Part shown: piece by piece, positions 3,234 to 59,200 of the stretch | Layout: each line of letters begins with the position of its first letter | Numbering within the stretch: the first letter of the stretch is position 1 | Assembly: GCA_037305845.1 (NCBI GenBank) | Contig: CP147778.1 | Coordinates: 1,760,001 to 1,824,000, forward strand | Length of the DNA: 64,000 nucleotides | Source of the DNA: Candidatus Freyarchaeum deiterrae | GTDB lineage: Archaea; Asgardarchaeota; Jordiarchaeia; Jordiarchaeales; Jordiarchaeaceae | Reading direction: 5' to 3' | Notes under the pieces: model-generated | What the model saw: the letters and a program-made list of their open reading frames with translations, nothing else | The model's database searches: none | What the model was told of the DNA's origin: nothing | Position numbers and translations under genes: made by a program

Positions 3234-4727
3234 ATGTCTAAATGGCCTTTTATTGCGGGCGACTACTTTGTTGGAAACGAAAAATCTGCTATTGCCGTAG
3301 TTACTTGCGGATCTTACGAGTTACCAAAAGAGTTAGCTAAGCTGAGTAATAAAATAGCAATTGTTGGTTTCTGTGAAACTGAAAATGATGGAATAGCAAA
3401 GATTCTACAAAACCTAGCTTCTAACCCCTATGTTAGAATACTTATTATCTGCGGTGAAAGAGTGGTTGGTCATGAACCCGGACAAACACTCATATCGCTC
3501 TACAATAATGGGATTGATAAAAACTACAAAATCAAAGGGAGTGAGGGAACTATCCCCATTCTTCACCCAAACTATTTTCACGGAGATGATCCGAATAAAT
3601 TTGTTGAAAGATTTCAAAGACAAATCATCAATGTCTTAGACGCCAGGGGAGAAACTGACATTGAAAAAATAATCTCTTTCATCAATGAGTTTGATGAACA
3701 AAATCTCTCTCCCTTTCCTGAGGATCCTATCCTTCCTTTAAGACCCAAAGTCGAATACGATTGGGATACAGGGGTAAAGCGATTTCTAGACGAAAACAGA
3801 TTCTATTTTAATAAGGGCATACCTCTGTTAAATCCTTTAATATTTACTGGACAATTGAAAGTTTATGATATCGCAGGAATTAAGATAGGCGGGCAGAGAG
3901 GCGAGTATCCTATAATTTTGGCTGGTACCATGTTTTACAGGGGAGATAAATTAGTAAGTAATCACGATGAAGGCCTTTTTGATAAAACTAAGGCCGAGGA
4001 GCAAATTAGAAAGCAAGACGAAAACTCATTAAAGTACGAACTTCCTGCAATTGTACACATCGTAGGAGAGACTACTAAAGCTTTAACAAATTATCTTCTA
4101 TTTGTCGCGGATTCTACAGATTCACCAATAATTATCGATTCACCCATTTTAGAATCAAGAATAGAAGCGATGAGCGTAGCCAAAGATACGGGGCTAGATA
4201 GTAGAGTAATATACAACTCAGTGATTAGCGCGGATAAAAAAGAAAAAAACCTAATAAACGAAATTGGAACAATAGAATATTCCATAGTTTTACCCTTTGA
4301 TGTAAAACTAACCTCAAGGATTAGCAGACTTGAGGAAATACTGAAATTTGTCGGAGACGCAATCAAAAATCCGATCATCGATCCTGGTGTCTCTATTCTA
4401 GGAGAAGGTTCGCTAAGCGCTTTGCATGCGGCTTGGTTGCTCAAAAATTATTATGGTTACCCCGTGTGTATTGGAGTGCATAACTTACAGTCTAGAATCA
4501 CTGAAAGTAAGAAGGAATTAAAAGAACTCGATTTCTCATTTGATTATGCTCTACCTTCCTTTTATGGAATTGATATAAATCTTTACGGTCCAATAAAAAA
4601 CGCAGATAGTATATTCAGAGAGGTAGCAGCTGTTGAAGCTGCAATTGCGGATGAGAATGTAAATACCATTGGAGTTTCTCCTAAACCTCCTCATCCCTAC
4701 TATGCTGTGAACCTTGGTCGTGAATAA
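3234..4727 (+). CDS. Soluble MtrA-MtrH (MtxA-MtxH-like) fusion: corrinoid protein plus methyl-H4MPT/H4F methyltransferase
   Basis: N-terminal WP..GDY.VG, G.CETENDGI.K...N..SNP..R, GHEPGQ (cobamide His). From about residue 205, IAGIKIGGQRGEYP..LAGTMFY (MtrH start), IIDS, YNS, YGPI. ATG 3234 follows a GGAGG SD (ORF track starts at TTG 3201). No TM anchor. Confidence 0.85.
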   Translation: MSKWPFIAGDYFVGNEKSAIAVVTCGSYELPKELAKLSNKIAIVGFCETENDGIAKILQNLASNPYVRILIICGERVVGHEPGQTLISLYNNGIDKNYKIKGSEGTIPILHPNYFHGDDPNKFVERFQRQIINVLDARGETDIEKIISFINEFDEQNLSPFPEDPILPLRPKVEYDWDTGVKRFLDENRFYFNKGIPLLNPLIFTGQLKVYDIAGIKIGGQRGEYPIILAGTMFYRGDKLVSNHDEGLFDKTKAEEQIRKQDENSLKYELPAIVHIVGETTKALTNYLLFVADSTDSPIIIDSPILESRIEAMSVAKDTGLDSRVIYNSVISADKKEKNLINEIGTIEYSIVLPFDVKLTSRISRLEEILKFVGDAIKNPIIDPGVSILGEGSLSALHAAWLLKNYYGYPVCIGVHNLQSRITESKKELKELDFSFDYALPSFYGIDINLYGPIKNADSIFREVAAVEAAIADENVNTIGVSPKPPHPYYAVNLGRE

Positions 4728-4729
4728 AA

Positions 4730-6004
4730 ATGAGTTTTTACGGTCCATATTTGATTCGAACTAGAAGCATAGATGTTGCATGGAGAAGCTGTATCAACAC
4801 AATTATTGAGAAGGGAATAAAACAAACAACTGAAGATAAAAGGCAAGAGACCAAAGAAACATTTTGTGCAACAATCCACATAAGTGATTGGCAAAGCGGG
4901 AAACTTGTTCCAACAAATTATATTGGACTAAGTGAGGATCTAATTCTCGAAAATTATATTCCACAGTACCTTAGTTCCGAAAGAGGAGAACACATATACA
5001 GCTATGGATGGGCAATGCGTAAAAGGTTCATGTTTAATCAATTAGACTACATCAAAGATCAGTTAAGCAGTGGAAAGAGTGTGGCATTCGCCCAATTCTG
5101 GAACCCCGCAACAGACATCACAAGCACAAATCCACCCTGTATAAATATAGTTCTTTTTCATAAGATAAATTCTAAAATTCACTCAACCATATACCTTAGA
5201 AGCAATGATATGGCAAGAGCCTACCCAGACGATGTTGCAGGTGTTTACACTGTATTTTTAACTGAGGTTTCGAGCAGATTTGGTGGAAAAAAGGCTATGG
5301 GCACCATAACTACAATCTCTGGATCTGCACACGTATATGAAACTTCTATCAACGAAATTAAACAAAGCTCTTTCGGCTCAATATCCGCTTCCAACTCTAA
5401 TCCAAAAATTAATGAAGAAAATTTGGCTGGACCGGTACTCTTCCGGTCGCACAATTTAAAAGGCCTTTTACACGAATTAGAGGTCAAGTTTCCTAAATAC
5501 TCCAAGCCTCAGGGAAAACAAAATTACTATCTATATTTCGGTTTCAAATTGGAAGAAATAAATCTAGAGTTAAAAGAATTTGAGAATCAAGCGGAAAAAA
5601 TTGTACATGGCGCAGAAAATCTCGGAAAAGCTCTAAGGTTCTATAAAGCTAAAACGGACGATGGAGAACCAGTAACAATTGATCAAATAGAATTGGCTAA
5701 AAGAAAATTAGAGGAATCAAATCAAAGCAGGAGAATAATTATTACGCCTAATAATCCTTGGATAAAAGGGTACGACCTAAATCCTTTAATTATACAATTT
5801 TTGTTAAGGCAAGGTCGCCTATTTACTTCCGTGCTTTTCGCAGATTACTCGATAAAACATATCCTGTCGGGAATTTACTTAATTAAGGCAATTCAAAATG
5901 AAATGCTGAATGGAAATAAATACAGTTTGGGGCCTATGGCGTTTTTCTTCATGCCCGCGAATAATGGCTCTGAAACTGTAGACTTCTCAGACATACTTAG
6001 TTAA
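4730..6004 (+). CDS. Thymidylate synthase/dCMP hydroxymethylase superfamily protein with two TS-like domains
   Basis: Domain 1: YSYG, WNP, NPPC (Cys137), RSND, SAHVYE. Domain 2: DQI, SRR, NP, QFLLRQGRL, but no catalytic Cys. Starts 2 nt after the mtrA-H stop. Confidence 0.8.
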   Translation: MSFYGPYLIRTRSIDVAWRSCINTIIEKGIKQTTEDKRQETKETFCATIHISDWQSGKLVPTNYIGLSEDLILENYIPQYLSSERGEHIYSYGWAMRKRFMFNQLDYIKDQLSSGKSVAFAQFWNPATDITSTNPPCINIVLFHKINSKIHSTIYLRSNDMARAYPDDVAGVYTVFLTEVSSRFGGKKAMGTITTISGSAHVYETSINEIKQSSFGSISASNSNPKINEENLAGPVLFRSHNLKGLLHELEVKFPKYSKPQGKQNYYLYFGFKLEEINLELKEFENQAEKIVHGAENLGKALRFYKAKTDDGEPVTIDQIELAKRKLEESNQSRRIIITPNNPWIKGYDLNPLIIQFLLRQGRLFTSVLFADYSIKHILSGIYLIKAIQNEMLNGNKYSLGPMAFFFMPANNGSETVDFSDILS

Positions 6005-6293: not shown

Positions 6294-7025
6294 ATGTTTG
6301 CAGCTCCTGGATTAGGCTACGACCGAGCCATCACGATTTTTTCACCCGACGGTCGTCTCTTTCAAGTTGAGTATGCAATAGAGGCTGTACGTCGAGGTAC
6401 CACCGCTATAGGTGTGAGGTGTAAGGACGGCGTAGTGCTTGCGGTAGAAAAACGTGTGTTAGCTCTCCAGGATCCCGAGAGCGTAGAGAAAATATTTGTC
6501 ATTGATGCGCACATAGGAACCGCAATCGCCGGACTGACGGCTGACGCGCGTGTTCTGGTAAATCAAGCTAGAGTTCAGGCTCAGGTTAATCGTCTTACAT
6601 ATGATGAGCCTATTAATGTTGAAAGTTTAACTAGGTATATTGGTGACACTAAACAGATGTACACTCAACATGCAGGTGTTAGGCCTTTTGGTGTTTCTTT
6701 CCTAATAGCTGGCGTAGACGAACTAGGCCCTAAACTATTTATGACCGATCCTTCTGGAACTTACTGGTCTTATTGGGCAGCTGCTATAGGTAGTGGGTCT
6801 CAGGCTGCTAAGGAAGTTTTAGAGAAGGAGTATAAGCAGATTATGGGTCTTGAGGAGTCTATTAAACTTTCTCTAAAGGCTTTGAATCAGGTATTAGAAT
6901 CTGAACTTGATCCTTCAAAAGTGGAAGTTGCAGTGGTAGACGTTACATCAAAGATTTTTAAGAGACTGTCTTCTAGTGAGGTTCAAGGTTATATCGATGA
7001 GATTAGAAAGTCTCGTAGTACTTAG
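6294..7025 (+). CDS. psmA: Proteasome alpha subunit
   Basis: YDRAITIFSPDGRLFQVEYA, RPFGVS; GGAGGT SD. Confidence 0.97.
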   Translation: MFAAPGLGYDRAITIFSPDGRLFQVEYAIEAVRRGTTAIGVRCKDGVVLAVEKRVLALQDPESVEKIFVIDAHIGTAIAGLTADARVLVNQARVQAQVNRLTYDEPINVESLTRYIGDTKQMYTQHAGVRPFGVSFLIAGVDELGPKLFMTDPSGTYWSYWAAAIGSGSQAAKEVLEKEYKQIMGLEESIKLSLKALNQVLESELDPSKVEVAVVDVTSKIFKRLSSSEVQGYIDEIRKSRST

Positions 7026-7027
7026 GA

Positions 7028-7756
7028 ATGATAGTTATGTCTATGCGCGGCGATAAGTGGGTTGATTTAGGTGACACTGTAGTAGCTCGTTTAGAGACCC
7101 ACGGTGAAAAATTTGAGATTCTTGTCAATCCCAATAAGGCATGGGAGTATCGCCGCGGTCAAAATATTGACCTATCTGAGATACTAAAAAGTTATGACAT
7201 CTTTGATGATGCACATAAAGGTCTTAAAGCAACAGAGGGAAAACTGCTAGAAGCCTTTGAAACAACAGACATAAATAAAATTGCTCCGATTATACTAAAA
7301 AAGGGATTTATACAACTCACTACGGAACAGCGTAGGGAGATGACTAATAACAAAAGAATGCAGATAATTAACATTCTTGCCCGTAATTGTATTAATCCTC
7401 AGACAGGCCTTCCTCATCCCCCAGCAAGAATCGAACGAGCTATGGAAGAGGCGAAGGTTTCAATCGACTTATGGAGAAGCCCCGAGGAGCAAGCAAAAGA
7501 TGTATTAAAAATGATTCAGCCAATAATACCAATAAGAATGGAACTCTTAAAACTGGCTGTAAAATTTCCACCGGACTATTCCGGTAAGGGATATAGCATC
7601 GTGGAACGTTTTGGAACCGTAACTAAGGACGAATGGCAGAAAGACGGTTCCTGGATTGCTATGATGGAAATTCCTGCCGGGCTTAGGGGTAAGCTCATAG
7701 AAGCGTTAAATAACCAAACTAAGGGAAAGGCAGAAGTAAAATTCATTAAAGATTGA
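7028..7756 (+). CDS. sdo1: Ribosome assembly factor SBDS
   Basis: VARL...GEKFEILV, NPQTGLPHPPARIE; conserved position after psmA. Confidence 0.95.
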   Translation: MIVMSMRGDKWVDLGDTVVARLETHGEKFEILVNPNKAWEYRRGQNIDLSEILKSYDIFDDAHKGLKATEGKLLEAFETTDINKIAPIILKKGFIQLTTEQRREMTNNKRMQIINILARNCINPQTGLPHPPARIERAMEEAKVSIDLWRSPEEQAKDVLKMIQPIIPIRMELLKLAVKFPPDYSGKGYSIVERFGTVTKDEWQKDGSWIAMMEIPAGLRGKLIEALNNQTKGKAEVKFIKD

Positions 7757-8448
7757 AAGGTGGTTTATCTTTGTCATTACATTTTAAAAATAGGAAAATA
7801 GTAGTACCCGGGGAGTTACTTGCCGAGGGCGCATATAAACCCGGCGAGGGAGCCTTCAGAGAAGGTAACTATATTTACTCCTCCGTAGTGGGCTTGGCGG
7901 AGGCTAAAGGTAAAATTGTAGAAGTTGTTGCTTTTGAGGGCGCATATATTCCAAAAGTTGGTGATGTAGTTATAGGAAAAGTTGAGGACGTAAAGATGAC
8001 TTCATGGCGAATTGATATACATTCACCATACCAAGCCACAATGCATCCGGTAAACGTTTTTGAACGACGTATGGATACTATGAAAGACGACCTCCGCCGA
8101 TACTTCGACGTGAAAGACACACTGGTTGCTAAAATAATGTCCTTTGACCGAACAAAGACTCCTGTGCTTACCGTAAGAGAGCGTGGTCTCGGTAAACTTC
8201 AAGGCGGATATCTGGTAGAAATGCTACCAACTAAAATCCCGCGTTTGATCGGTCGTAAGGGTTCAATGATAAATATGATTAAAAAAGAAACTAGATGTCA
8301 GATTACTATCGGCCAGAACGGGATAATTTGGGTCTCTGGCAAGAGTTTCGAAGAAGAAGAGCGAGTTATTAAAGCTATAAGACAGATTGAACGAGAGGCT
8401 CATACTCCTGGTTTAACTGATAGGATTAGAGATTTAATTCATAAGTAA
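7753..8448 (+). CDS. rrp4: Exosome RNA-binding protein Rrp4
   Basis: VVPGELL, YIPKVGDVVIG (S1), PRLIGRKGSMI (KH). True start may be TTG 7771. Confidence 0.95.
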   Translation: MKGGLSLSLHFKNRKIVVPGELLAEGAYKPGEGAFREGNYIYSSVVGLAEAKGKIVEVVAFEGAYIPKVGDVVIGKVEDVKMTSWRIDIHSPYQATMHPVNVFERRMDTMKDDLRRYFDVKDTLVAKIMSFDRTKTPVLTVRERGLGKLQGGYLVEMLPTKIPRLIGRKGSMINMIKKETRCQITIGQNGIIWVSGKSFEEEERVIKAIRQIEREAHTPGLTDRIRDLIHK

Positions 8449-8470
8449 ATTTTGTTAGGTGAGTGAGTAA

Positions 8471-9247
8471 ATGGAAGAACCTCATATTTCCTCCCAAATT
8501 AAACTAATAGCTGAAGATAATTTGAGACTTGACAAAAGAAAATTAGATGAACTTCGACCAATTAAGTTGGAAGTTGGAGTTCTCTCAAGAGCTGATGGCT
8601 CTGCGTATATCGAACAAGGAAGAAGTAAGATTCTTGCAGCGGTTTACGGTCCGCGTGAACTACACCCTCGCCATCTTGCACAACCTGACGAGGCTTTACT
8701 GCAATGTATTTATAGAATGGCTACCTTCTCTGTGGAAGAGAGGAAAAGCCCAGCGCCATCACGTAGAGAAACAGAACTTTCTAAGGTCATAACCGAATCT
8801 CTCGCCCCCGCGGTTTTTCTAAAATATTATCCGAGATCGTCCATAGATGTTTATATACAAGTAATCCAAGCCGATGGGGGAACCAGATGTTCAAGTATAA
8901 CAGCCGCTTCCTTAGCCTTAGCAGATGCCGGTATCCCATTACGTGATTTAGTAGCGGCTTGTGCCGCAGGCAAGATAGATGGAAAAGTAGCTCTCGATTT
9001 GAGTGACATTGAGGATAAAAGCGGGGAAGCAGACTTACCTGTTGCTATAATGCCAAGAAAAAATTTGATTACACTAATACAGATGGACGGGTTTTTGACC
9101 AAGCAAGAATTTGTCGAAGCCTACGAACTAGCTGTAAAGGGTTGTCAAAAAATTTACGACATGCAAAGAGAAGTTCTCATACAAAAGTATATTAGTATTC
9201 AAGAGGAGTTCTCAGAAGAAGAAAACGAACCAGATAATGGAGGTTAA
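8471..9247 (+). CDS. rrp41: Exosome catalytic subunit Rrp41
   Basis: [29 protein letters not shown]. Confidence 0.96.
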
Positions 9248-9250
9248 AAA

Positions 9251-10069
9251 ATGCCTCACAGTCTTATTACGGAAATTGAATCAAAGTACATAAGATCACT
9301 TATGGGTAGAGAAAGCAGAGTTGATGGCCGCGGATTGAAGGAGATGCGTCCAATCACGATTGAATACGGAATAGTAGAGAAGGCTTGTGGGTCAGCCAGA
9401 GTAACTATAGGTAGCACAAAGGTTATTGTTGGAGTGAGCGCAGAGGTTGGAACACCCTTCCCTGACACCCCTAACGCGGGGGTTGTGACATGCACCGCAG
9501 AATGTTCACCGATGGCGTCTCCCTACTTTGAACCAGGCCCACCCAATGAAGACTCTATCGAATTAGCAAGAGTTGTTGATAGAGGCATAAGGGAATCTAA
9601 AATGGTAGACGTAGATAAACTCTGCATAATCCCTAATGAAAAAGTGTGGATTCTCTTCGTAGATATTTATGTTATTGACCACGGAGGAAATCTATTCGAC
9701 GCCTCCTCTCTAGCAGCTGTCAGCGCTTTACTTACAACTAAAATTCCAAAAATTGAAGTAGAGGATGGAAAGGTAAAAAAACTTAATGAAAAAACACCCC
9801 TTCCAGTGAAAGACATACCAATTTCCTTAACTTTCGCAAAGATAGATGAACAACTATGTGTAGATCCTATATTAGAAGAAGAAAACGTTATGGACGCTAG
9901 AATTACTATAGTTTACGATCAGGGTGGCAACATTGTAGCTATGCAAAAAGGAGAACGAGGGGCATTAACTACCTCGGATCTTTACAAAGCTGTAGACTTG
10001 GCGGAAAATATGTCAAAAGAAATTAGAGAAAAATATATTTCCCCCATTTTGAAAAAGGAGGCCTCCTAA
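9251..10069 (+). CDS. rrp42: Exosome subunit Rrp42
   Basis: [30 protein letters not shown]. Confidence 0.96.
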
Positions 10070-43825: not shown

Positions 43826-44119
43826 GCCAACAAATTAAACTAACCATAACCATATAAATATCATTTTTCGAAGCAAGTATTTAACGAAATCATCTTAAAC
43901 TATCTATTAGAAATTATAAACTGAACGCTCAAAATCATAACACAATCTCAATTACAAAGTAAAGCCTTTATAATTTAAAAAACATTAAAATTTTCCTAAA
44001 ACAGCACAAATACAGGCATAAAAACAAGGATTGCTGTTACGAAAGCAAAAAATTTATCTAATATTAACTGCAACTAACTACCACAACTCTTTGCGTCAAA
44101 TCCATAAAAATAAAGGTAT

Positions 44120-44286
44120 GGGCCCGTAGCTCAGAGGAATAAACTAATACTTCCGAGAAACCTGGTAGAGCGACAGAATTCTGCCAGAAAATCGTCGAAG
44201 CTCATATGTAACGCTGAGAAACCTGTTGGTCCAGGGTTCGAAAGAGCTTTATCAGTAAAGCTCCGAACATCCCTGCGGGCCCACCA
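44120..44286 (+). tRNA. tRNA-Ile2(CAU) with four BHB introns (15/16: 44135-44160; 30/31: 44177-44199; 37/38: 44207-44220; 59/60: 44243-44269), CCA encoded
   Basis: Spliced 77 nt: GGGCCCGTAGCTCAGCCTGGTAGAGCGACAGGCTCATAACCTGTTGGTCCAGGGTTCGAATCCCTGCGGGCCCACCA. The GGGCCC acceptor is typical of archaeal Ile rather than Met tRNAs. Confidence 0.88.
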
Positions 44287-44629
44287 CCACTAAAATAACA
44301 CAATTCAATAATCATTATTAAGCTCGCACAAAAATAATACTGCTTCACTTTTTAAAACAAATATTTCATACCCTCTTAAACCACTTTATCTTTACTCAAT
44401 CACCCCATAACATCCGCATTATGTTCTTCCATACTATTGCTTGCGGTTGAAATTTAGCGGTTAAGCAAAGCCTACTACCACATTCAAAGTAAACTAGGCC
44501 ACAAAATTCAAATCAGACTTTCACATTTTTTGATACCTTCTTTCACCTATCAGATTCACCCCAAACAAAGTATAAGCCGCTAAATCCATCAATTAAATCC
44601 CTCAACTCAAAAATTTATCATTTCCAAAA

Positions 44630-44647
44630 CCGAAAAAGTTATATTAA
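44630..44647 (+). promoter_or_regulatory. Putative BRE-TATA promoter of the 16S rRNA transcript
   Basis: CCGAAAAAG-TTATATTA, about 250 nt upstream of the 16S, followed by a hairpin-rich leader. Confidence 0.55.
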
Positions 44648-44840
44648 CACAATCCGAAGGCATAAGTGCGGAAAATTATCCGTGAAATAGCCATAGCAAC
44701 CGGCGTCAATCCAGAAAAAGGGTCAAAGACCAAATATGAAGGATTGAAAATATTCCGCTATGGAAAAAATCAAATAAATGCGGATTTGAATAACTGGGCG
44801 TGCAAACGTCTGAAAGATTCATGATCCTAGAAAGGCTCAT

Positions 44841-46567
<1,727 letters not shown>

Positions 46568-46739
46568 TGGGCTTTCTTTTGTTCTATTGTTTTTTTCTTT
46601 AATGGGTTTGTTTTTTCTGTCTGTAATTTTTTCCGTGTTTGTCCTCTTGTTCTCGAAATTTTCACTCGAATTTTTTAATAAGTGCAAATCACAACATCAA
46701 AACAAAAAAGGGAAAAAGAAGTTTTAAACCTCGTCGTTT

Positions 46740-48182
46740 CTAGGTTCCACGCCTAGACCGCAAGAAGACAATAGTGCCTAACACTACCACAGCGGCTAAG
46801 AGACCACCGCCTATTAAAAGCGGCAAGCTAAGTCCAGTACCAGACTGACCAAGCACCATAGCCAGAAGAGGCAGAGGTGAAATACTGGCAGAAGAAAGGT
46901 TTCCAACTCGGAAGTAAACACCTAAGCCACTACCATCCTGACCCAAGCTCTCCCAAGCTACCACGAAGGACCCATTCTCAAGGCATTGAACTGAAGGATA
47001 CTCTTGACGGTCATTGATGTATTCGTTCACATGAACCTCGTCGGTAAAACTTTGCCCCATTGAGTTGAAGACCCTACAGTAAATACCGTCGTTAGCTTCA
47101 CCATAACCTTCCTGAAGCCAACTACTCCATACAACGATGTAGCCTGAATTATTAGAGAAACAGCATACAGAAGGCATCCTCTGATGGGCCGAGGTGTAGG
47201 TATTCACTTGAATATCGCCAGTCAGGGCATTACCCGCAGAGTTGAATAACCTAGTGTAAACCCCTTCGGCACTTCCGTCAGGGCTCTCCCAAGCCATAAC
47301 GAAGGCTCCATTAGAGAAACAATAGACAGTAGCATGATTTTGAGAGTACTCTATGTTAACAGGTGCGAGAATATCATTGGTCTGATTATTTCCCGAAGAG
47401 TCGAAAATTTTAAAGTAAACATCCCACCAGTTATAGACATCCTGATTATCCCACACTACAACAAAGGATTCATTACCGACACAGCAGACATTCGCATTTT
47501 CTTGTTCGAAGGCGGTTTCAGTGTTCACCTGTATGTCATCGGTTAGATTGTTGCCCGTAGAGTCAAAAACCTTGATATAAACACTGTCATCATCTATCTG
47601 ACCAGCACCTTCCCAAGCTACAACGAACCCATCGTTATCGAAACAGTATACAGAAGCAAAATTTTGCCTGTTTGCGGTGTAGCCATTCACCCGAACGTCA
47701 TCGGTAGTGTTGTCACCGGCAGAGTTGAAAAGCTTAAAATAAACGTCGGCGTTACCAGTTTGATTGCTGTCCCATGCTACAACGAAGGAGCCATTAGAAC
47801 GAGTGGACAAAGAGGGATTTGCCTGATTATTTGAGGTGTTACCGTTCACTCTTATATCTTCAGTCAAGTTATTACCTGTGGAGTCAAAAATTTTGAAGTA
47901 AACATCCAAGTCTCCAGTCTGATTGCTATGCCAAGCGATTACGAAGGAACCGTCGGAACGACTGCGGAGAGAAAGACTCGCTTGGTCATTTGTGGTGTTA
48001 GTGTTTACACGAGTTTCGTTCCCCCATACCACAATCAAACCCTTAGAAGTCGACTGCTGAACAGTAATTGTATGAGTTAATGACCACATTGGTGTCGGAG
48101 TGTTTTTCACTGTTAGTGCCACCGTGGTTAGACTCAGAGTGAGAGCCACCAGAATTAGAGCAAAAACCGTTTTTTTCTTAAT
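46740..48182 (-). CDS. Secreted, membrane-anchored repeat protein (about 7 repeats of ~54 aa, probable beta-propeller)
   Basis: Repeats VN..T...Q..(P/A).V....G.FVV.W.......VY.K.F.S.G; C-terminal TM plus RSRR. Start extended to ATT 48182 (see findings); ORF track starts at 48149. Confidence 0.82.
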   Translation of the reverse strand: MKKKTVFALILVALTLSLTTVALTVKNTPTPMWSLTHTITVQQSTSKGLIVVWGNETRVNTNTTNDQASLSLRSRSDGSFVIAWHSNQTGDLDVYFKIFDSTGNNLTEDIRVNGNTSNNQANPSLSTRSNGSFVVAWDSNQTGNADVYFKLFNSAGDNTTDDVRVNGYTANRQNFASVYCFDNDGFVVAWEGAGQIDDDSVYIKVFDSTGNNLTDDIQVNTETAFEQENANVCCVGNESFVVVWDNQDVYNWWDVYFKIFDSSGNNQTNDILAPVNIEYSQNHATVYCFSNGAFVMAWESPDGSAEGVYTRLFNSAGNALTGDIQVNTYTSAHQRMPSVCCFSNNSGYIVVWSSWLQEGYGEANDGIYCRVFNSMGQSFTDEVHVNEYINDRQEYPSVQCLENGSFVVAWESLGQDGSGLGVYFRVGNLSSASISPLPLLAMVLGQSGTGLSLPLLIGGGLLAAVVVLGTIVFLRSRRGT

Positions 48183-48827
48183 CCGTATTCCTCCTCATAC
48201 TTGTGAACTCATTATCTTAAATTATCACAACTCCTCTCTTCACGAAAATTACACTAACCTATCTCAATCTCAGAATTGTTTTAGTATAAAAATTTAATGC
48301 AAGCATCATATACTGCTTTAACACTATTTCATAAAAACCTCCCACCAACAATAGAATAAAACATGAATTTCAATAATCGGAGACTTTCACCCATTTTTCT
48401 AACAGGAGAATCTATCCCCCAAAATATGTAATTTTTTTACACATTTTTACATATTTTTTGCAAACGATAGTTAAACAACGGATAACCCGCCTCCTTATAC
48501 TAAAAGAAAAAAATCTCATAAAACTCTAAAATGGAAACCAAAGATAAAAACGAGATAAATGGAAAAAAACAGCAAAAAACGGAAAAAAATAATGAAAAAA
48601 AGGCTTTAAAAACCTCCAAATCAAACAAAAACCCCCCAAAAAAACAAGCATACGCCTTTATAAAGGAAAACGCCACCAGAAAACCACTTGGATGCGGCGC
48701 AAAAATCACCTCAATAGACTTTCTCACGAAATAACAAAAATCAATACATAAAATTGTTAAAACAGCGCCGCATCACCAAACAAACAACCAATATGAGAAT
48801 CAAAAAAATGGAGGGAGGCGAACCCTT

Positions 48828-49430
48828 TTGCTCAGCACCATGAAAATGGCGGAAAGATGGGCAGCAGCCACCATAGCACTGCTCGCGGTAAGCATCATCA
48901 CGCTGGCCTACCACTCCACAAAGGTATACTGGTACACCAGCCTAACACTAGCACTGACGCTGGGGCCCACGCCCACGGGAATCCTCAGTCTCGCAGTCCT
49001 TAGCGCCTACCCGGCGGAATTCAGCATAGGGGTAAACGCAGGCATCTTCGCGGGATTCTGGTACAAACTCTTACTGGACCTAGCCTACCTGGCACCCGTA
49101 GGAGTAGCCCTCTTCACAAGCCTAGTCGTCACCCTGTGCTACTCCCTGAGAGAGTTCCCAGGCTGCGAAACAGCCGACGGCATAGTAAAGAGAATAAACC
49201 AGATAATAACTCTGGGCGAAGAACGAGACCAGATGGAAGCAACCCTAGCCCTGATCGTGATACCCTGCATACTAATGAGCATCCAAACCTACGTCTACGC
49301 TCTAACACCGGTAACAAACCCCCTAAACCCCCTAATCCTAGTCATAATCCTCGCACTAAACCTGCTGACCACGTACAATTTCGGCACAAGCATAGGACGC
49401 ATCATACAACGTGAAGAAGTAATACGCTAA
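48828..49430 (+). CDS. Integral membrane protein of unknown function
   Basis: About 6 hydrophobic segments; GGAGGGAGG SD; TTTATAAA box near 48657. Confidence 0.72.
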   Translation: MLSTMKMAERWAAATIALLAVSIITLAYHSTKVYWYTSLTLALTLGPTPTGILSLAVLSAYPAEFSIGVNAGIFAGFWYKLLLDLAYLAPVGVALFTSLVVTLCYSLREFPGCETADGIVKRINQIITLGEERDQMEATLALIVIPCILMSIQTYVYALTPVTNPLNPLILVIILALNLLTTYNFGTSIGRIIQREEVIR

Positions 49431-49968
49431 AAGGTGGATTTGCAATGAAGACGGGAAAAAGAACATGCTACAGCGTTTAATCTACAAACCATTCCCAAAC
49501 CCGCACAAAACCATAAAACAAGATGATTCGGAGTAAGCGGGGACAATAAATACCCCCATAACAAGAAAAACTAAAATGATGCTGAGGTACCAGGTTCTCA
49601 TGGGACATATATTTAGTACCTGAGATGCCTGTTCTGCTGGCGCGCTTGCCTGGTACCTTAGCGACCAATTCTCCTATACAAGCGGGTCTGGTTCAAAACT
49701 TGTTTCATCCGAAGCGTTAAAACTATTTTTCCTGAGGTCTGTAACCGCTTCCCGATTCAACACCTTTAAGAAAGAGCTTTTATCCGAAATATAATAAATC
49801 TTCCGATTTTTCATACCACTCTCAAATCTTACATAAATGAGAGCAGGGAAGACCTTCACACACGCCCAAAACCTGTTTGAACTTTTCCAATTAGGCTCTC
49901 TTCAGTCTCTGCAAGTGCCAAACTCTTTCGAAAAATTCAGGCTCAAAAGAGATCTGCCCTCCTATAAA

Positions 49969-49986
49969 CCAAAAAGTTTATAATAA
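49969..49986 (+). promoter_or_regulatory. Putative BRE-TATA promoter of the giant ORF
   Basis: CCAAAAAG-TTTATAATAA, same layout as the rRNA and tRNA promoters. Confidence 0.55.
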
Positions 49987-50227
49987 AGATAAACGGAAAA
50001 AGTACAAGCGCGTCGACAGGGGATAAAAGGTACACTAAATATCACACCATGTGCCGTAAGGCACACAAACCAACTCAAATTAACTTAACTCGGTTCGTAA
50101 AGAACTGCTTGAATAAATGAATAAATGCGAGGAGCTTATTTGAGGAGGCTGGATGGGTAGTGAGCGTACCCGGGTTTGGAGGATATCGAGTTAACAATCG
50201 TGGGAGGATGCTACCATAGGGGCCATC

Positions 50228-53200
50228 ATGTGCGTATTCCTGATCGCACTCTTCATAGGTGCGGACGCCCAGCAGATGCAAGCGGTCCAACAGCAGATAG
50301 ACGACATCCTCCACTACGTGAACATGCCCGATATACAGCAGGCGGAAAGAGACGGAAACATCACCCACTCTCTCAACATTTTCTTCCAAGGACAAGCAAT
50401 AGGACTATACGAAGGAGGATGGCCCTGGGGACACGGCTACGAAGCCGACGTGTGGGATTCCGACTATGAAAAGACCAACCCTGGCCACGTCTACGTCTAT
50501 AATAACACCAAGAATATAGGAGGCCGAAGAACCCTCTACTTCGAAATAATAAGTTACCCATACTACGACATAAACAGCCTCCCCGACGGCTTGGTGCGCG
50601 AACTGTGCGGTAACTACACAGACCCCCTAGCCAAACCTGAACCGCTGGTAATCTACTGCCAGTACGATGATGAGAAGGTTCCCTGGGCTGGCGACAAAAC
50701 CTCGCTCTCCACGTTTCTGGGAAGAATGCTTCTACTCTCCAAGCTCAGGCACATAGACTACAGCAGCCCCATAGACCTAGCGGAGCAGTGGTCCAATTAT
50801 CTGGATAGGTATCAGTTCGACTTCAACGATCTGGACTACATATATCGGAACTTTCCTCTGGTATTGCAGAATCCCTGGTTATGGCTCCAAAGCGGCTCCA
50901 GCCTGAACAGTTTAATGGAGCTTGTAGGCTCCGGTGTAAAGCTGAGTGATTTCAGCTTCGTGAGCGGCGATAACCCGCTATTCAATTTTCTGAACTCCGT
51001 TTGGGGGGCGGAGGAGTACCACTCCCTCTGGGAGGCGGCTTTTAACCAAACCAACGCCTGGCAGCTAGTACGCTACAACGATACCTTTGTACCTCTGCCA
51101 TACTTGGTAACCTACACCCACATCTTGGACGAGATGGGTGTTCTCGACCTGTTTGGCGAATCGGGCTCCGAACTCTACGGCGCGTATAATAATTGGGGCC
51201 TCAATCTGAACGGTTCCAACTCTTTGTATAGTTACGAGTTCATCCTGAGCAGTATCTTTGATTCACGGGCGGAAAGCCTTCTAATTGATAGCTGTAGCAA
51301 CGCCTCAATGTGGAACGCAACCGGGGAGAACGCTACCCTATCCACAGACGGCTACAGCGTAACAGTAAGCGTTATGGGCAACCACTCAAACACCACCACC
51401 CTCAGCCACAATTTAGCTCAGCCCGTAGACCTCTCCCCTTATGACAGCTTGCTTCTGTGGTTCAATATGATTAACGCCACTAGAAGCAACTTCGCAACCC
51501 TCAAGATTACTCTGTATGATGGGGAGGGAGACTGGAGGGAATACTCCACCTGGGCTTACGATACCTCTGACAGGTGGGAGAGAATAACACTGGACTTGGA
51601 TGAACCTGACCTTCAGAGTGGAAGCTTCGGCTCCCTGACCAATATCACTATTACCGCCACCCTCAACCAAATCCTCAATTACAGCCTCTCAATTGATGAT
51701 GTTCGCGTCAATTCTCATATATTGGGTGAGTGCCTCTGGGACACAGATTGGTCGCATCAACTGGTTAATGGGACTGGAGACCTCAACATCGCGGTTTACG
51801 GCTTCCCCTACGTTTACGACTACTATCCATACAGCCTCGGTCTCGAGTGGAACTTGTCCAGTTCAAACGGCTCCGCCGCTTACGTTTATGATCCTCAAGG
51901 GGTCTGGAGCCTTGATTCCCAGAGCTTCCTAACCTTCATGCTCTACGGCTTTGGGACCGAGGATCAGAACGCCAGCCTCAAGGTACGCCTGTGCATCGAT
52001 GAAAACAACTCTCTGGACTACTCTCTGGGAAAGGTGGACTGGTACGGTTGGAGAAAAGTAGTCATCCCCCTAAGCCTGATGAATGAGACTGGAAACGAGA
52101 ATCTCTCCAGCGTGGACTACCTCAAATTTGAACTCGGCGAAATGAGTAACGGCACAGGAATGCTGGTTGTGAGCGATGCGGAATTGGACTCCGCTCAATG
52201 GGCTAAGGTGGAGTTCGTGGTTCCTGATACGGTGCGCGATGCGGACGGTGACAACCACCCCAGCATAAGTCTGGACTGCTGGAATGGAGCAGAGTGGGTT
52301 ACAGTGGGGCAGTGGGATGCGGACGATTCAAACAGCACTATAGCACAAGAAACACTGTGGGGCAATCTAACATATCTGGACGGCACCCCTTCGAGTGACC
52401 TCTTCTCAGGTCAGAGTCTATGCTTGTATCCTGTGGGCACTGGATCTCAGAATCCCTACTCAGGTTTTGCTGGAGACATAAACTATACTACGGCGGAGGA
52501 CTCTGCGGGCTTTGCTGTACTGCTGCCTTCTCCCTCTCAAGAAAACCTGAGCAGTGTCCTGTTCAGGGTGGAGGTGTGCTTTGATGACTCAAACTATTAT
52601 GTTAACACTCGGGATTATCCGCTCGCCTTCTTTTACTTTAACTCCTCTTTCACCAACATGAGCCTGAAGGCTAACGATACTGAAATGGCCGAGCATGAAC
52701 TGTTTTACGGTAACGGTTCCACGGTTCTCTTCCTCGACTTGGAGGCCGCTCTGGATAACGTGAACCTCAAGGAGTTTCGAGCAGACGCTGGAAATGTAAC
52801 CCTAACCTCAGCCTTTTTCAGTTGTTTGGATGATTGGACGGTGGACAGCCTGAACTCCACCGTTTTTGTGGCGGGTGGTGAGGAGGAAGGAGGAGTCTTC
52901 GTTCAGGGCTCGGAACACCTCTATCTAAACTACACCTTCTCACCCGAACTCAGCATAAGCTATGATAATGCTTATGTTGATGTGGTTTACTCCAGCTCCT
53001 ACAGCAGCAGTAGTGAGCAAAACCAGACGAACCTCGCCCTTTGGGTAAGGGTTGATGATAACTGGCTGAATTACAGCCTGCCCAACGACGCGGAATCCAA
53101 GAGGATTCGAATCCCACTCAACGGCACCCACATGGAAGAAATATGCTTTGAGCACACTACAAATAATACTACTACCGACTGGTTCAAAGTTGAATCCCTA

Positions 53201-56200
53201 GAAGTTTTCTACCTCACCAACATCACACAATATTTACAGACTGCTCTAGGCTATATGAATGAAACCAGTTTGACGGCACCCGGATACAATCCCCGATTCA
53301 CTCAGACACTGAACACGACAGAGCTTCCCACGAGTTTGTCCGCGTGGGCATATGTGAACGGAAGCAGCTCGCTCACCGTAGAGTTCTTTGATGAGAATGG
53401 AGCCTTCCTAAAATCGGATACGGTGTGCAGCGGGGGTTCCAACTGGTATCCGGTCTGCCTAGTGGACTTGACTCAGCCTGCGAACGCATCAACTCTGAAG
53501 TTTATAGTGGCAGCGGATAAACTGGATCATGCTTACCTCTGTCCCTCAATCTTGACCAGCAGTGGAATATATGAAAGCTTCAACAGCCTTGAGGGCTGGA
53601 CTGCTTTAGGCAACGGGACAGCGGAGAATAACAGTCAGGGATTAACGGTAACACTGAACAACGGGACTCTGACCCTGTGGACTGATGTATCGGAGCTGGG
53701 ATTCGACTTTTCAAGTTTCGACACCATAGCCGCCGCATATAACATAAGCGGCGACGTGAAGGCGAACATAGTTTTCGACTGGCTTCTTGTGGATGCGGAC
53801 GGAAACCAAGCGGAGTATCAGTCTTACGTGAATCTGTCCCGAGATTCAGCTTGCGCTATTGACCCTATATCCCAGTATTATAAGATTTATGCTCCAATTT
53901 CCTTCCCATTTGAGGATTGTGTGGAGAACTTCTCTTACACGAATTTTGACTTGAACCGAATCATGCTCAACTTCTCGGGAACCGGTCAGGCTAACGTATC
54001 CTGGGTTCAGACCCTGTATATTCCCGATTGGTACTTCATATCGGTAACCGAGAATATAACATCAACCCACCTATACGTGAACTGGCTCACCAAATCCCTA
54101 GTGTTCGGCGGCGTTTTTAACAGCAGTGCGGGTGAGCCGAACTGGGTGGGGCTTATGCACACTTTCTCAGAGGATGTGAACCTCACAACTAATCCAGTAT
54201 TGGAAGTGAATTTCCGAACCCAGAACACCAGCCTCAAGCTGGGCTTAGAAGTCTTGGTTTATGATGAGCTGGGCTTTCAGTGGGTATGGGCGAAGCTACC
54301 CGCCTCAGAAGTTATCTTCGAGCACCCCATATACACACCAACCTTCGTGAACATTCCCGATTACCTTCGGTCGAACAACGGACGTCTGTACACATCCCTC
54401 CGAGCCATCCGACTGTACGTGAATGATACAACTGGTAACTATTCCGGACTGGGAAGCATGGAGATATCAAGCATTTGGCTACACCCCGCCTGCGGCGCTC
54501 CCCTGTCTTTCTTGGTATTGGATGATTTCGAGGCCGATGACCTTTCCCGGTGGCAGGAAGAGGCGGGCTGGCTTCTCCCCTACACCGACCTCAACCAGTG
54601 GAGCAGCAACCAGATAATCTGCGGCGGAAACATAGCGTATGGTCCCCCTGGTTGGGAGGACGACAGCTTTCAGACCGGCTGGTACAGCGGGTACAACTAC
54701 TCCTCAAACGGTGACGTCCTGACTTGGACCCCCTCCAACTACCCGTTAAACGTCTACAACATCACCGGCGGTAGCTCAGACGCCGAGGTCGAGTTAAGCA
54801 CGTATCTCAATACTCGGTGGTTCCGCCCCGGGGACACTCAGATGAGGCTGGGCCGCGAGGACACGACCTGTTGGGTCTACGTACCTCCCTATGCTTATCC
54901 TGTTACTGTATATGTTTACAAGCGAACCTTCGTCCGGTTTCCGCTCTACATCCCCGAGAACGCTATCATAACCAACGCTTGGATAAGCCTCAAGTCTAAG
55001 ACCAACGAAACCAATAGCATTCCCTGCGCCGTAAACCTGCTGGACTCCGGCAACTTTCCAGAATTCACAGACGACCCCTGGAATTGGCCGACCTCTGGTG
55101 GCGCTGTGGGTTGGACTGCGCCGAGTACCATTGCGGATTGCTGGTACAATACTTCAAACATTTCCACATTGGTTCAACGTTTCATAAACACGACGGGATA
55201 CTACCCCGGTAAATACGTGGGATTCAGACTTATGGACAACGATACCATAGGTGCCTGGAAGACTTGGTATACCTACGAGAGTGACCCGCAGAATGCCCCC
55301 AAGCTCTACGTGTCCTATACCGTTCCGGGGAACTACTACATTTCGAAGGCTGTAAATGTGGATGTCGGCGAGTATCCCTGCCTCGTTTTCAGAGCGAAGT
55401 GTAACGTGGACAACAGCACGATACATCTGGCTCTAGGAACTCCTGAGGATCGTTACTATTTTAAAACTTACTTCGAACTCAATCAGTCCTACCGAACCTT
55501 CGCTATTCCCATATCCAACGGCTTCAACGCCACCAGCATCACGATCTTTTATCCAGACTTTCAAAACGTGAAAGTGGACATAGACTATCTAGGACTGCTA
55601 AGGTCGGTGAGTCTCGAGGGCACGGTAATGAACAGCTCCCTCTCGGTGAACGGTGGATTTGAAAACGGCGACTTCTATAACTGGACCCTGTCGCAGTGCT
55701 ACGGGTGCACAGTTGAATCCCCTGAGTTGGTTGCTGAGGGGGTTCATGCTGGGAATATTACCTGCAATGGTGTTGGTCAGTGGCTTTCACGCACCGTGTC
55801 TGGTGATAACATAGTCAAGTTCTCAATCTACAAGCCGAGTAGCTTTAACGCAAGTAACAGATACTTCTTCCAACTATACGATGCAGACCCGTGGGGCTCA
55901 GGGAAAAAGATAACTTTCTACTTGGTGGACTCCTTTGATACAAATATGAGTGAATATGGAGACAGTAAAAACAAGGCTCTCAAATGGTCTCAGAAGAATG
56001 GAACCTATAAAGACTACTACATAGACCCCCACGCCCTGTATAATCTATACTGGAATAATACTGACCCCACACAGATTGAGGTTCGGTTCGGTGTGGAGGC
56101 AAACCAGTCATCGAACATGGTTATCGACGGCTTCGGGGTCTGGGACCGCGGTTCAGGTTTGGCACCAAATAATATTGCGATTTATCCAAGCATGCCTTTG

Positions 56201-59200
56201 GATAATCATGATTCTCTGAAGCTTTTGTACTCATTTCCCAGTGAGAGCACCGATGTCTGCACTTACACCTTCACCATAGATAGGGACTTCAGTCAAGAGA
56301 AGTACTTCTCCCTCTGGGTTTACCAAGACCAGTACAATAAGAAGTGGAACCACACGCTGGACATTTGCCTGCGCTGCAAGGACGGTAGCTTCGGCGGCTG
56401 GAACATGACCATGAACTGGTCGCAGGATTTGAAGAGGCTGGTTCTCCCACTGGACAATTTCACGTACGAGTCTGGATCAGTGGTTTCTGGGCAGTTGGAA
56501 AAAATAGTAGTCAGTTTGAAAGACCAGTACGGTTACGTCAAGGAGGACGGCTGGATTCTATTAAGCGGTCTGCTTTTCGGACACCAGTACAATTTCACTC
56601 TCACCAGTGAGAGCTATAGCGGAAGCGGAGCGGTGAGAATACAGAATCCGAGTGGAGGCTGGGTAAAAATATTTGCGTCGGGTAACGAAACGGGTACTAT
56701 TCCCTTCACGCCCGATGAGCTTCTCTGCTTCGCGGCTAAGCCTAAGGGTGACACTCCCTGGGCGGTCATGGTGGATTTAGCTCTAAAGGATGGGAGCACC
56801 GCAACCCTCGTCTGGTACCGCGGCAGTCGTCCCATTCCCTCAGAGTATCCTTACGATTACTTAACACAGATTGACTCTAACCCCGACAACTGGAACGAGT
56901 ACCGCCTGAACCTGTTCGACGCCGTAAAGAACTACGCCGAGCAGATGGGCAGGGGCGGCTTCCAGCGCATAGAGAAGATTGCGTTTCTAGTGGGCCCAGG
57001 GGAGGTGGTTTTCGACAGCGTTCTCGTGAGGAATGTTCCTGAGAACCTAGATACCAGCCCCTTAAGCGTCTTAAGCAGCCCTGTGATATTCTTCTACGAC
57101 GAGGCTTATCCCTGTAGTTGCGGCGCGGGAGGGAATGACTGGAGTTTGGTTAACGAGACCCTTACCACGCTTGAAGCAGGTTTAAAGAGCATGAACATCA
57201 GTGTGGTTTGGGCTGATGCTCAGGAAGTGAGGAAACTTGTAAGCACTTATCCCCGAAGCGTCCTTGTAATCGTAGGTAGTATTGTGCCCGATACCCTCTG
57301 CGGTAGGGAGGGTTATTCGGTTCTTGAAAACTTCGTGGAGCGTGGAGGCACGGTACTCTTTCTCAGTGATGATTACGCTCCCGTAAGCGCTGTAGGGCGG
57401 GAGGGATACGAAACACTCTGGTTCCAAGGTATGGGGCTGGAGTATCTTTTGGACGCTAAGTCTCCGACCATAGAGCTATTCAACTATTCAAGTTTGAAGC
57501 CTCTGAGCATAACCATGGATCCTACAGAGATGGGGGGCGGTCTCGGAGCTTTAAACGGTTTGAACACTTCGGGTTTCGCGTGGCTCATCCCCTACCTCCG
57601 TTATCAAAACCTGTGGGTTGAAACCTACTACTACAACAGTTCAGAACAGTTGGGGCGTGGAGTATGTGTGCGTCCTCAAGACTCGTTGGGCTACGTGGCG
57701 GAGTTCCCTCTGTCAATGGTTTCGGATGGTAACGATACCGGTGTGGTTGTGAAGTTTGTATCCGACCACTTTATCGATTTGTGGCTGGACACGTCTGGTT
57801 CTAACTTCGATGACTATGAGAGGCCTTTACCGGGGGTCTCCGATGAAAAGTTTATGGACTACTATGGAGAGATGAAGGCAGGAAACTGGAGCTTCTCAAC
57901 TGATATACCGGAGGAGGAATACTACGCTTCCGCAGAGTTCCAAGCCTTCTGGCACGTTTACCTGAACGCCTCCCTGAGTTCCGAGAGAAACGACTCCATA
58001 ACCGCCACCTATACGGTTAGCCCGAACAGCACCATTCTTCTATCGGAGTTCCCGTTCTTCACCGCAACGGTTCTCACTATAGGAAACTATACTAGGCTCA
58101 AGTTGGAGGCGGAAGTTTCGGGGCAATACTACACCCTTTTTGACGATAATGCGTCTGATTGGCGCAAGTACGTCTGGTATCTTCCCAATATTTGCGCGGA
58201 GGACGAATTTCAGGGTATGCGGGTAACTTTGTACGAGAACGATACCTGCGGTACGGGTAATGCGAGCGTCACGCTCACCAACTTAGGCGCTTACACTGTA
58301 GCCGTGCCTGAATACGGTTTCCCAAAATCCCTGAATGTGAACTTCCAGAACTCCTCTGTTTATGATTACCTGTTCTCAGGGGACAGTGATTATCCCTTCA
58401 TGGGCTTCAAGTTTAACGACACTCAGAACAGCGTTTACACTATAACCCGAGAATATCCCCACCCCTTCAGTTTCTTGGAATACCCCTACTTGGAGTTCGC
58501 CTCATCGGGCAGCGAGGGAAACTACACGGTGGAGCTGTGGCTTCAGAAGAAGTGTGGCGAGCAGAGCTACGCTTGGTACCTGCTTGACTGTTTCAACGGC
58601 TCCGATTCAGGCTCCTCACAAATGGTTATGGGATACAACCTCTACGCTAAATTCAATGCTTACTACGAACAATTCAAGAGTATAACTGCCGACCTGAAGG
58701 GCTGGAAATTAATTGTGAGGGGCAACGCCTCGCAGAACTCCTCAAAGAACTGCCTCTTCACACTAAAATACATCGCCCTCACCGATTATTACACCGGTTG
58801 GAGAATATACCCCGGTGGAATGGACTACACTGGTGGGCAAGGTTACGGTGATGGAGGAGAAATCGTCCTGAGCTTGGAGCAAGAATTAGGAGCATCAGAT
58901 AGCAGCATAAGCTCGAAGGAGAATATCGGTCTCAGTCCAAACGTCAGCTCGGTGGGTGATAGTAGCAGTTCAGGGCAGGATTCCCCTACCGTATCTGAGA
59001 GTGTCAAACCCTCCGAAGTGGATGTTTCCGAAATAGTCTCAAAGGAGGACTACTGCCTGAGCCCCAGCGCCTGGTGCGTATATAACAGCAGCGGGGGAGT
59101 CGAAGCCAAAATAGTGTCTGGCGAGTTCATTGAACTCCGGATGAGGCGGGCAATCGCCGATGACTGGGCGATGTTCAGATACGATCTGGGTGAGGGTGTT

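Follow-up and report, generated by a model that had tools for sequence, protein, structure and literature searches.

Introduction

Thymidylate synthase (TS) is an obligate homodimer whose half-of-the-sites behavior has long been debated, and, to our knowledge, thymidylate synthesis has never been settled biochemically in archaea that use tetrahydromethanopterin (H4MPT). In dimers of the TS family, a pair of arginines reaches from each subunit into the active site of its partner (PMC5175136). The base is read at the position of Asn177 in Escherichia coli ThyA, where Asn selects uracil, Asp selects cytosine, and swaps reverse the preference; this rule holds in TS, T4 2'-deoxycytidine 5'-monophosphate (dCMP) hydroxymethylase, MilA, BcmA, and the 5-hydroxy-dCMP synthases (PMC8670742, PMC5175136, PMC13326640). 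The characterization of archaeal TS was not followed up, and the main study of Asgard TS mentions no fusion or duplication (PMC9931769). A fusion of MtrA and MtrH (MtrAH) has been described from Asgard archaea by Valentin-Alvarado et al. (2024) in a paper that does not settle on a methyl acceptor, puts forward coenzyme M, and says nothing of thymidylate (PMC11291895). Here we describe two adjacent genes in a 64,000-nucleotide (nt) stretch of the Candidatus Freyarchaeum deiterrae contig CP147778.1 (the window), which is part of a closed 3.58-Mb Asgard genome: a gene for a two-domain TS-fold protein (window positions 4730..6004, + strand) and, directly upstream, a gene for an MtrA-MtrH fusion (3234..4727, + strand). 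Homologues of the TS-fold protein are named as Freyarchaeota, Jordarchaeia, and Njordarchaeota.

This two-gene module is the only TS-type system of its lineage, and the way in which these archaea form thymine nucleotides has probably not been described. Sequence and fold evidence supports the duplication of the TS fold, the complementary distribution of active-site residues between its halves, the pairing of the two genes, and the status of the TS-fold gene as the sole TS. In the searchable literature, we found no description of a TS pseudo-dimer or of a link between TS and MtrAH.

A duplicated TS fold with complementary halves

The gene at 4730..6004 encodes 424 amino acids (aa) plus a stop codon, and Cys137, RSND 157 to 160, Asp168, His201/Tyr203, and SRR 333 to 335 all lie where the original prediction, which was made from the DNA letters and their translations, had placed them. 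Domain 1 (residues 1 to 213, 4730..5368, + strand) is the catalytic TS domain by profile and fold. Pfam recognizes thymidylate synthase in residues 88 to 212 only (PF00303, 41.9 bits against a gathering cutoff of 24.3), which places the protein in the TS superfamily, and the best NCBIfam model, TIGR03283 (residues 8 to 209, 114.9 bits, E value of 3.3e-33), stays below its equivalog cutoff of 174.55 bits. In a VIA fold search, domain 1 matched TS-family chains with Z scores of 17.5 to 21.9 and a root mean square deviation (rmsd) of 2.0 to 2.9, with about 200 residues aligned (residues 2 to 224); the top matches were 9iqu (Z, 21.9), 9iqc (Z, 21.3), and MilA (Z, 18.8 to 20.0), and canonical TS reached up to 18.3.

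The active-site residues of domain 1, all on the + strand, begin with Cys137, the predicted nucleophile, in a PPC motif (5138..5140). Arg157-Ser158-Asn159-Asp160 (5198..5209) is equivalent to R166-S167-x-D169 of E. coli, and in Asp167-Asp168 (5228..5233) the second residue (GAT, 5231-5233) takes the Asn177 specificity position while the first is Asp or Glu across all two-domain forms. His201-Val-Tyr203 (5330..5338) is equivalent to His207/Tyr209, which bind the 3'-OH (PMC5175136). The Cys, Arg-Ser-x-Asp, and His-x-Tyr motifs are invariant in domain 1 and missing from domain 2. Because Cys137, Arg157, Ser158, Asp160, Asp168, His201, Tyr203, and Ser333-Arg334-Arg335 are invariant among 20 aligned homologues with identity as low as 39%, this residue pattern is not due to chance. 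A misassembled or frameshifted fusion of two genes was also ruled out, as the single open reading frame (ORF) is kept in 18 genomes.

Asp160 corresponds to Asp169, which Asn replaces in the 5-hydroxy-dCMP synthases (PMC13326640). The residue is retained and invariant in domain 1, so the window protein does not carry the 5-hydroxy-dCMP synthase signature, and its retention at this signature position (compare the title of PDB 1bjg) would point to a pterin as a one-carbon (C1) donor that is still used.

An inter-domain linker (residues 214 to 235, 5369..5434, + strand; predicted local distance difference test [pLDDT] of 60 to 68, falling below 50 at residues 215 to 217) leads to domain 2 (residues 236 to 424, 5435..6001, + strand), a degenerate TS fold without a nucleophile by profile search, Foldseek, and VIA. 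A hidden Markov model (HMM) that was built from twelve single-domain Asgard TS, with no two-domain sequence included, detected the C-terminal halves of 13/13 two-domain proteins with E values from 7.6e-11 to 2.6e-4. The alignment of domain 2 to this HMM is collinear and puts its SRR under the SRR of single-domain TS; in all 13 sequences, the Arg-Arg pair is kept, Leu or Ile stands at the position of the catalytic Cys, and there is no RSxD. Structure gave a similar picture. Residues 229 to 424 modeled alone with AlphaFold2 (AF2) had a pLDDT of 92.2, and a VIA search with domain 2 returned seven TS-family chains at Z scores of 12.0 to 15.7 (174 to 181 residues aligned), with the next match at 5.5. 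Foldseek matched domain 2 to TS with E values of ∼1e-7 and TMq of 0.63 to 0.66. More than half of the conserved domain-2 positions (14/26) fall in residues 333 to 360, which align to the Arg-Arg strand and the Cys strand of domain 1. A direct profile-profile comparison of the two halves with hhalign was weak (E value of 0.05, probability of 1.1%), so we base the homology of domain 2 on the search with the single-domain HMM and on its fold. By these two lines of evidence, the second half is a degenerate TS domain, and the internal duplication that had been proposed is borne out.

The two halves complement each other in their active-site residues. In domain 1, a two-residue deletion lies exactly at the Arg-Arg columns of single-domain relatives. 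Domain 2 carries Ser333-Arg334-Arg335 (5726..5734, + strand), which corresponds to the R126'/R127' pair lent by the other subunit in TS dimers. The split that the original prediction had claimed, with a catalytic domain 1 lacking the pair and a domain 2 that has SRR but neither Cys nor RSxD, is therefore seen. In canonical TS, the Arg-Arg pair lies in the same chain as the nucleophile domain and each homodimer has two equivalent sites; here, the pair is found only in domain 2. Since the pair is lost from domain 1 and kept in domain 2, and since it is given in trans in TS dimers, each chain would form one composite site. The residue pattern thus makes it very probable that the protein is a single-chain TS pseudo-dimer with one live and one dead half. 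The AF2 model of the whole chain is confident as one body (pLDDT, 86.2; predicted template modeling score, 0.91), and we infer that the halves pack as the two subunits of a TS dimer do.

A very different role for the second half can be envisaged, in which it serves only as an appendage to the structure or as a surface on which MtrAH docks, the chain homodimerizes via domain 1, and the SRR is conserved for another reason. The weak comparison of the halves to each other and the inferred nature of the dimer packing leave some room for this arrangement. However, the loss and retention of Arg-Arg are reciprocal, the same reciprocity is found in an independent clade and in an 877-aa fusion protein (P0089/P0112 and P0143; see below), the domain-2 SRR aligns to the SRR of single-domain TS, and both sites of a domain-1 homodimer would be without an Arg pair. 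We consider an appendage very unlikely. A natural pseudo-dimer with one live and one dead half would show that one composite site suffices and would offer a clean system for the study of asymmetry in TS.

Compared with the short archaeal TS (TIGR03283, the ∼210-aa single-domain Asgard forms), the window protein is alike in its short fold, which lacks the C-terminal segment of ThyA, and in its Cys, RSND, and HxY motifs; unlike it, those proteins have Asn and SRR in the same chain and no second domain. With canonical ThyA (E. coli, L. casei, and human), it shares the fold (Z, ∼18; rmsd, 2.6 to 2.9; ∼200 residues), the nucleophile, Arg-Ser-x-Asp, the His/Tyr residues, and an Arg pair acting in trans. 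The differences from canonical ThyA are many: identity is 15 to 19%, Asp replaces Asn177, Arg163 and Asp/Glu167 stand at Leu172 and Phe176, the gene is paired with mtrA-mtrH, and, if the packing is as proposed, one chain with one site takes the place of two identical subunits with two sites.

Pairing with an MtrA-MtrH fusion gene

The upstream ORF opens with TTG at 3201, although its start is probably the ATG at 3234, and it ends with TAA at 4725-4727, so that 2 nt separate the mtrA-mtrH stop from the TS start codon. Pfam identifies MtrA in residues 13 to 177 (PF04208, 124 bits) and MtrH in residues 220 to 492, and NCBIfam models match as well. The MtrA domain aligns to the MtrA of PDB 5l8x (E value of 1.3e-29), and its GHEPGQ motif (3468..3485, + strand; His at 3471-3473) aligns with the GHITGQ of the solved MtrA. 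The motif is invariant as GH(E/A)PGQ across four Asgard families, and the domain thus has both the fold and the GHxxGQ His that mark the MtrA family. We take this His to be the putative cobamide ligand of MtrA. The upstream protein resembles the MtrA and MtrH subunits of methyl-H4MPT:coenzyme M methyltransferase from methanogens in having the GHxxGQ His and a full MtrH domain. It is the Asgard MtrAH fusion of Valentin-Alvarado et al. 2024 (PMC11291895), which is here tied to a TS-fold gene by adjacency and co-occurrence.

We scanned 400 Asgard genomes for the two genes. The two-domain TS is present in 18 of them, across five families and always as a single copy, and at 18/18 of these loci an MtrA-MtrH gene lies directly upstream on the same strand. 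No mtrA-mtrH gene was found within 1.5 kb of a single-domain TS at any of 12 Asgard loci (0/12). Within ±8 kb across four families, mtrA-mtrH and TS are the only conserved genes. A scan with the MtrAH protein found the full-length fusion in exactly those 18/400 genomes and MtrH-length paralogues only elsewhere. A functional coupling of the TS-fold protein to MtrAH is highly probable on this evidence, and the MtrAH partnership stands firmly, from comparative genomics, as a new finding.

The strict pairing, together with the DPANN fusions described below, names a concrete partner for a TS. It also offers a candidate role for the MtrAH fusion, for which no methyl acceptor was settled on (PMC11291895), and a gene of this kind might otherwise be mistaken for a remnant of methanogenesis. 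The bifunctional DHFR-TS of protists and plants, in which a TS is likewise joined to a pterin-handling protein, offers an analogy only, as its partner is a reductase in the same chain and its TS is a canonical homodimer.

Two minor observations concern this gene and its relatives. ARAGORN called a tRNA-Val at 4618-4690 (- strand), antisense inside the 3' end of mtrA-mtrH, which is probably a false positive; Rfam found no RNA family at 4618-4690 at E values up to 1. In family f31, whose genomes carry a single-domain Asn-type TS, an MtrH-type gene recurs ∼18 to 20 kb from the TS gene (G323:C1 57473 and 75739; G362:C1 226753 and 206788; G335:C1 255027 and 274026). Some of these MtrH-type genes lie in open frames of ∼545 aa, and the recurrence may be mere within-family synteny.

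Related fusions and pseudo-dimers

A search of 1.8 billion representatives recovered a second, independent link between TS and MtrA. In single chains of ∼460 to 500 aa, an MtrA-like domain is fused to an Asn-type TS and to DUF4346 (P0039, P0041, P0042, P0048, P0082, and ∼100 more). The two proteins with named sources are labeled as coming from Woesearchaeota and Nanoarchaeota and are annotated merely as "thymidylate synthase," the plain name that genes like the one in the window currently receive as well. These DPANN fusions are like the Asgard operon in that an archaeal-type TS is joined to an MtrA-family protein and a pterin-associated domain, and they point to the same partnership. They differ in having a single Asn-type TS domain, mostly with Arg-Arg, and DUF4346 in place of MtrH; a two-residue deletion in their MtrA-like part removes the His of GHxxGQ.

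The pseudo-dimer pattern recurs independently in two other places. P0089 and P0112, both of 415 aa, known only from metagenomes, and 37% identical to each other, form a second pseudo-dimer clade in which Arg-Arg is deleted in domain 1 and kept in domain 2. At the specificity position, one has Glu-Asp (P0089) and the other has Gly-Asn (P0112); P0089 had no match in a phage collection. The second case is P0143 (877 aa), which combines an MtrA-like domain, DUF4346, an Asn-type TS, and a degenerate second TS domain with the Arg pair.

An invariant Asp at the specificity position

In HMMER alignments to solved TS chains, the query ...RSNDMARAYPDDVAG lies under RSGDMGLGVPFNIAG, with Asp168 below the conserved Asn of ...PFNIAG. 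The spacing is also that of E. coli residues 146, 166, and 177, with Arg at Cys+20 and Asn/Asp at Arg+11. Both observations bear out the earlier placement of Asp168 at the Asn177 position. The change is visible in the motif itself, as the two-domain protein has AYPDDV where single-domain Asgard TS have AWPANV. The window protein thus has the residue of the dCMP-specific homologues and not the Asn of canonical TS (EC 2.1.1.45).

To place this change, we aligned 181 archaeal-type TS sequences on a single profile; 179 of them are catalytic domains, and the other two are fragments consisting of domain 2 only. In the two-domain clade (∼37 sequences, fragments included), all have Asp, preceded by Asp or Glu. 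Outside the clade, Asn was found in 138/143 domains and Asp in five, namely, P0120, P0121, P0103, P0081, and P0089 of the separate pseudo-dimer clade. A tree of 157 domains recovered the two-domain clade as monophyletic (support, 0.909) with an Asn-type sister group, and we conclude from this that the Asn-to-Asp change arose once.

Other positions help to narrow down the substrate. The Ser/Arg pair is tied to 2'-deoxy substrates, and MilA has Ala/Lys in its place (PMC5175136). The window protein has Ser158 and Arg334 and thus lacks the CMP signature of MilA/BcmA (Ala for Ser167 and Lys for Arg126'). Where (d)CMP had been predicted as the substrate, the 2'-deoxy form is upheld by Ser158, Arg334, and His201/Tyr203, and ribonucleotide CMP is disfavored; these residues favor a 2'-deoxy substrate, dCMP or 2'-deoxyuridine 5'-monophosphate (dUMP), over CMP. 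Position 147, the second discriminating site (PMC8670742), was uninformative, being Leu or Ile in archaeal-type TS whether Asn- or Asp-type.

The Asp that would read the base is shared with T4 dCMP hydroxymethylase, MilA/BcmA, the phage Xp12 dCMP methylase, and the 5-hydroxy-dCMP synthases. Those cytosine-specific homologues are homodimers of phages or antibiotic pathways that act beside a host TS, whereas the window protein is cellular, chromosomal, and the sole TS-type protein; it differs from the 5-hydroxy enzymes in retaining Asp160 and from MilA in retaining Ser/Arg. Because the Asp is invariant and arose once, and because domain 1 is closest in structure to dCMP- and CMP-specific enzymes, we favor cytosine as the base read by Asp168, tentatively and with a little less than an even chance of being right.

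The same resemblance raises the question of whether the protein could be a dCMP/CMP hydroxymethylase or methylase, like T4 gp42 or MilA, that makes a modified cytosine for DNA or a small molecule, with dTMP (thymidylate) coming from salvage or an unknown enzyme. Its closest structures are MilA and phage dCMP hydroxylase. Moreover, Asp168 together with a polar or acidic residue at Cys-3 (Asn134 in the window protein and Asp in Njord-type sequences) resembles the hydroxymethylase signature of Asp177 with Asp/Glu143 (PMC13326640), under which, in phage and bacterial enzymes, Leu or a hydrophobic residue at position 143 gives a methyl product and an acidic one gives a hydroxymethyl product. However, Asn-type single-domain Asgard TS have Glu at this position (Cys-3); the position-143 rule therefore does not carry over to archaeal-type TS. 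Ser158 and Arg334 further argue against a ribonucleotide substrate for such an enzyme.

Thymidylate supply in the genome

The number of TS-type genes bears directly on this question. The closed window genome (G000) has one PF00303 match, the TS-fold gene itself, and it has no ThyX and no TK1 (the latter sought in G000 only); the closed genomes G002 and G004 have a single TS match each, and ThyX is absent from five further genomes that carry the two-domain gene. As the sole ThyA/ThyX-type gene, the module must feed the thymine nucleotide pool, and a role in modification only is unlikely. A modified base as the enzyme's only product, one of the two outcomes offered by the original prediction, thus lost ground in view of the three closed genomes. 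The gene is also chromosomal, vertically conserved in five families, and always single copy, which is a further argument against an enzyme for modified cytosine. A weak match to a dNK-family kinase in the window genome (46 bits) leaves some salvage possible. Overall, we regard the production of a modified cytosine as the main role as quite improbable.

Two fragmented bins of the same genus, with an estimated contamination of 5 to 8%, have a second, single-domain TS match on other contigs (G120:C536:2249-2659 and G121:C121:10322-10828), one of them with two in-frame TAG codons. These matches may be contamination or a real second copy.

A stronger challenge comes from the possibility that the same pseudo-dimer, with MtrAH, acts on dUMP. 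The enzyme would then be the cell's TS, fed by dCTP deaminase and dUTPase or, in one family, by a dCMP deaminase, and Asp168 would read uracil via the invariant Arg163 or a raised pKa or would serve an altered cofactor chemistry. Several observations weigh against dCMP or suit dUMP. The window genome has both a dCTP deaminase (TIGR02274, 142 bits against a cutoff of 92.8) and a dUTPase (NF002598, 171.5 bits against 130), as in methanogens; both families also match in an M. jannaschii control. These two enzymes are the normal source of dUMP and would be looked for beside a dUMP-using TS. The dCTP-deaminase family is present in 5/5 related genomes, and four of these five (two of them closed) lack a dCMP-deaminase-family gene, which would leave 5-methyl-dCMP without an obvious deaminase there; the PF00383 protein of the window genome looks TadA-like. 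We identified no dedicated dCMP supply. Near Asp168, the invariant Arg163 and Asp/Glu167 could alter how the base is read, and since the position-143 rule fails in archaeal-type TS, the position-177 rule might also fail here. Asn is found alongside MtrA-like partners, in the DPANN fusions, as well as in a pseudo-dimer, P0112, so neither feature requires Asp. For dUMP speak also the lack of any TS-type gene besides this one and of ThyX, the Asn-type single-domain form in other Asgard archaea, and the rest of the pathway, which shows no sign of rewiring.

Set against this are three points. The invariant Asp has been held over a deep clade, compared with Asn in nearly all domains outside it; Asp goes with cytosine in every characterized subfamily, where Asn-to-Asp swaps reverse the preference; and the Asp cannot be explained by the MtrA-like partner or the pseudo-dimer, precisely because both occur with Asn. 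We therefore hold dUMP to be a substantial possibility, at somewhat less than an even chance.

The distribution of deaminases is compatible with either order of deamination and methylation. Every genome that we examined carries a gene for a dCTP deaminase or for a dCMP-deaminase-like protein; in the family where that dCTP deaminase is missing, a ComEB-like dCMP deaminase takes its place, which is the usual either/or supply of dUMP. This pattern suits a dUMP-using TS, but it would also permit methylation first and deamination afterward, at the triphosphate or monophosphate level, and gene content thus cannot settle the order. Across the phylum, the dCTP deaminase does not track the two-domain TS. 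The specific suggestion that the product serves as a dTMP precursor via deamination was weakened by the four related genomes without a dCMP-deaminase-family gene.

A possible route from dCMP

With these arguments on both sides, our favored reading, held with a little under even confidence, is a single-site pseudo-dimer that is partnered by MtrAH and uses dCMP as its substrate. The N-terminal half would supply the nucleophile Cys137, the phosphate and sugar ligands Arg157, Ser158, His201, and Tyr203, the pterin-contacting Asp160, and the base-reading Asp168. The C-terminal half would be a dead TS fold whose invariant core is the Arg-Arg pair lost from the N-terminal half, and the chain, packed as a TS dimer, would form one composite active site and not two. 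At this site, a pterin-derived C1 unit would be added to C5 of a 2'-deoxypyrimidine 5'-monophosphate, and the MtrA-MtrH protein would handle the methyl- or methylene-H4MPT cofactor, with C1 presumably flowing from the pterin to the base. Judging by Asp168, we lean toward dCMP as the substrate and 5-methyl-dCMP as the product. A subsequent deamination would then yield thymine nucleotides, either on the enzyme itself or with the help of a separate protein, one of the dCTP-deaminase family or a dCMP-deaminase-like one.

A more specific form of this chemistry would be a corrinoid relay, in which MtrH moves a methyl group from methyl-H4MPT to the cobamide of MtrA, the TS pseudo-dimer methylates C5 of the Cys-activated dCMP, no dihydropterin is made, and thymine again comes from later or on-enzyme deamination. 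We think this relay unlikely; if it were true, thymidylate would be made by a cytosine-first route that depends on a corrinoid and sidesteps dUMP. More generally, if Asp does select dCMP in these proteins, theirs would be the first lineage of cells with no route to thymine other than one from cytosine nucleotides, and such a route would bear on the avoidance of dUTP and on 5-methylcytosine in Asgard DNA.

Surrounding genes

Downstream of the TS gene, 6294-10069 (+ strand) holds genes for the proteasome alpha subunit and SBDS, a usual archaeal run, followed by exosome-subunit-like ORFs; the proteasome gene adjoins the TS gene only within the genus. Upstream, a 355-aa ORF (1181-2248, + strand) with a Cys-rich N-terminal part and no Pfam match at an E value of 0.01 sits between a DUF5591/PUA (archaeosine-type) gene and a hexapeptide-repeat transferase gene. 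The G+C content of the window climbs from ∼0.37 to 0.46 to 0.50 in its last 20 kb (∼44000-64000).

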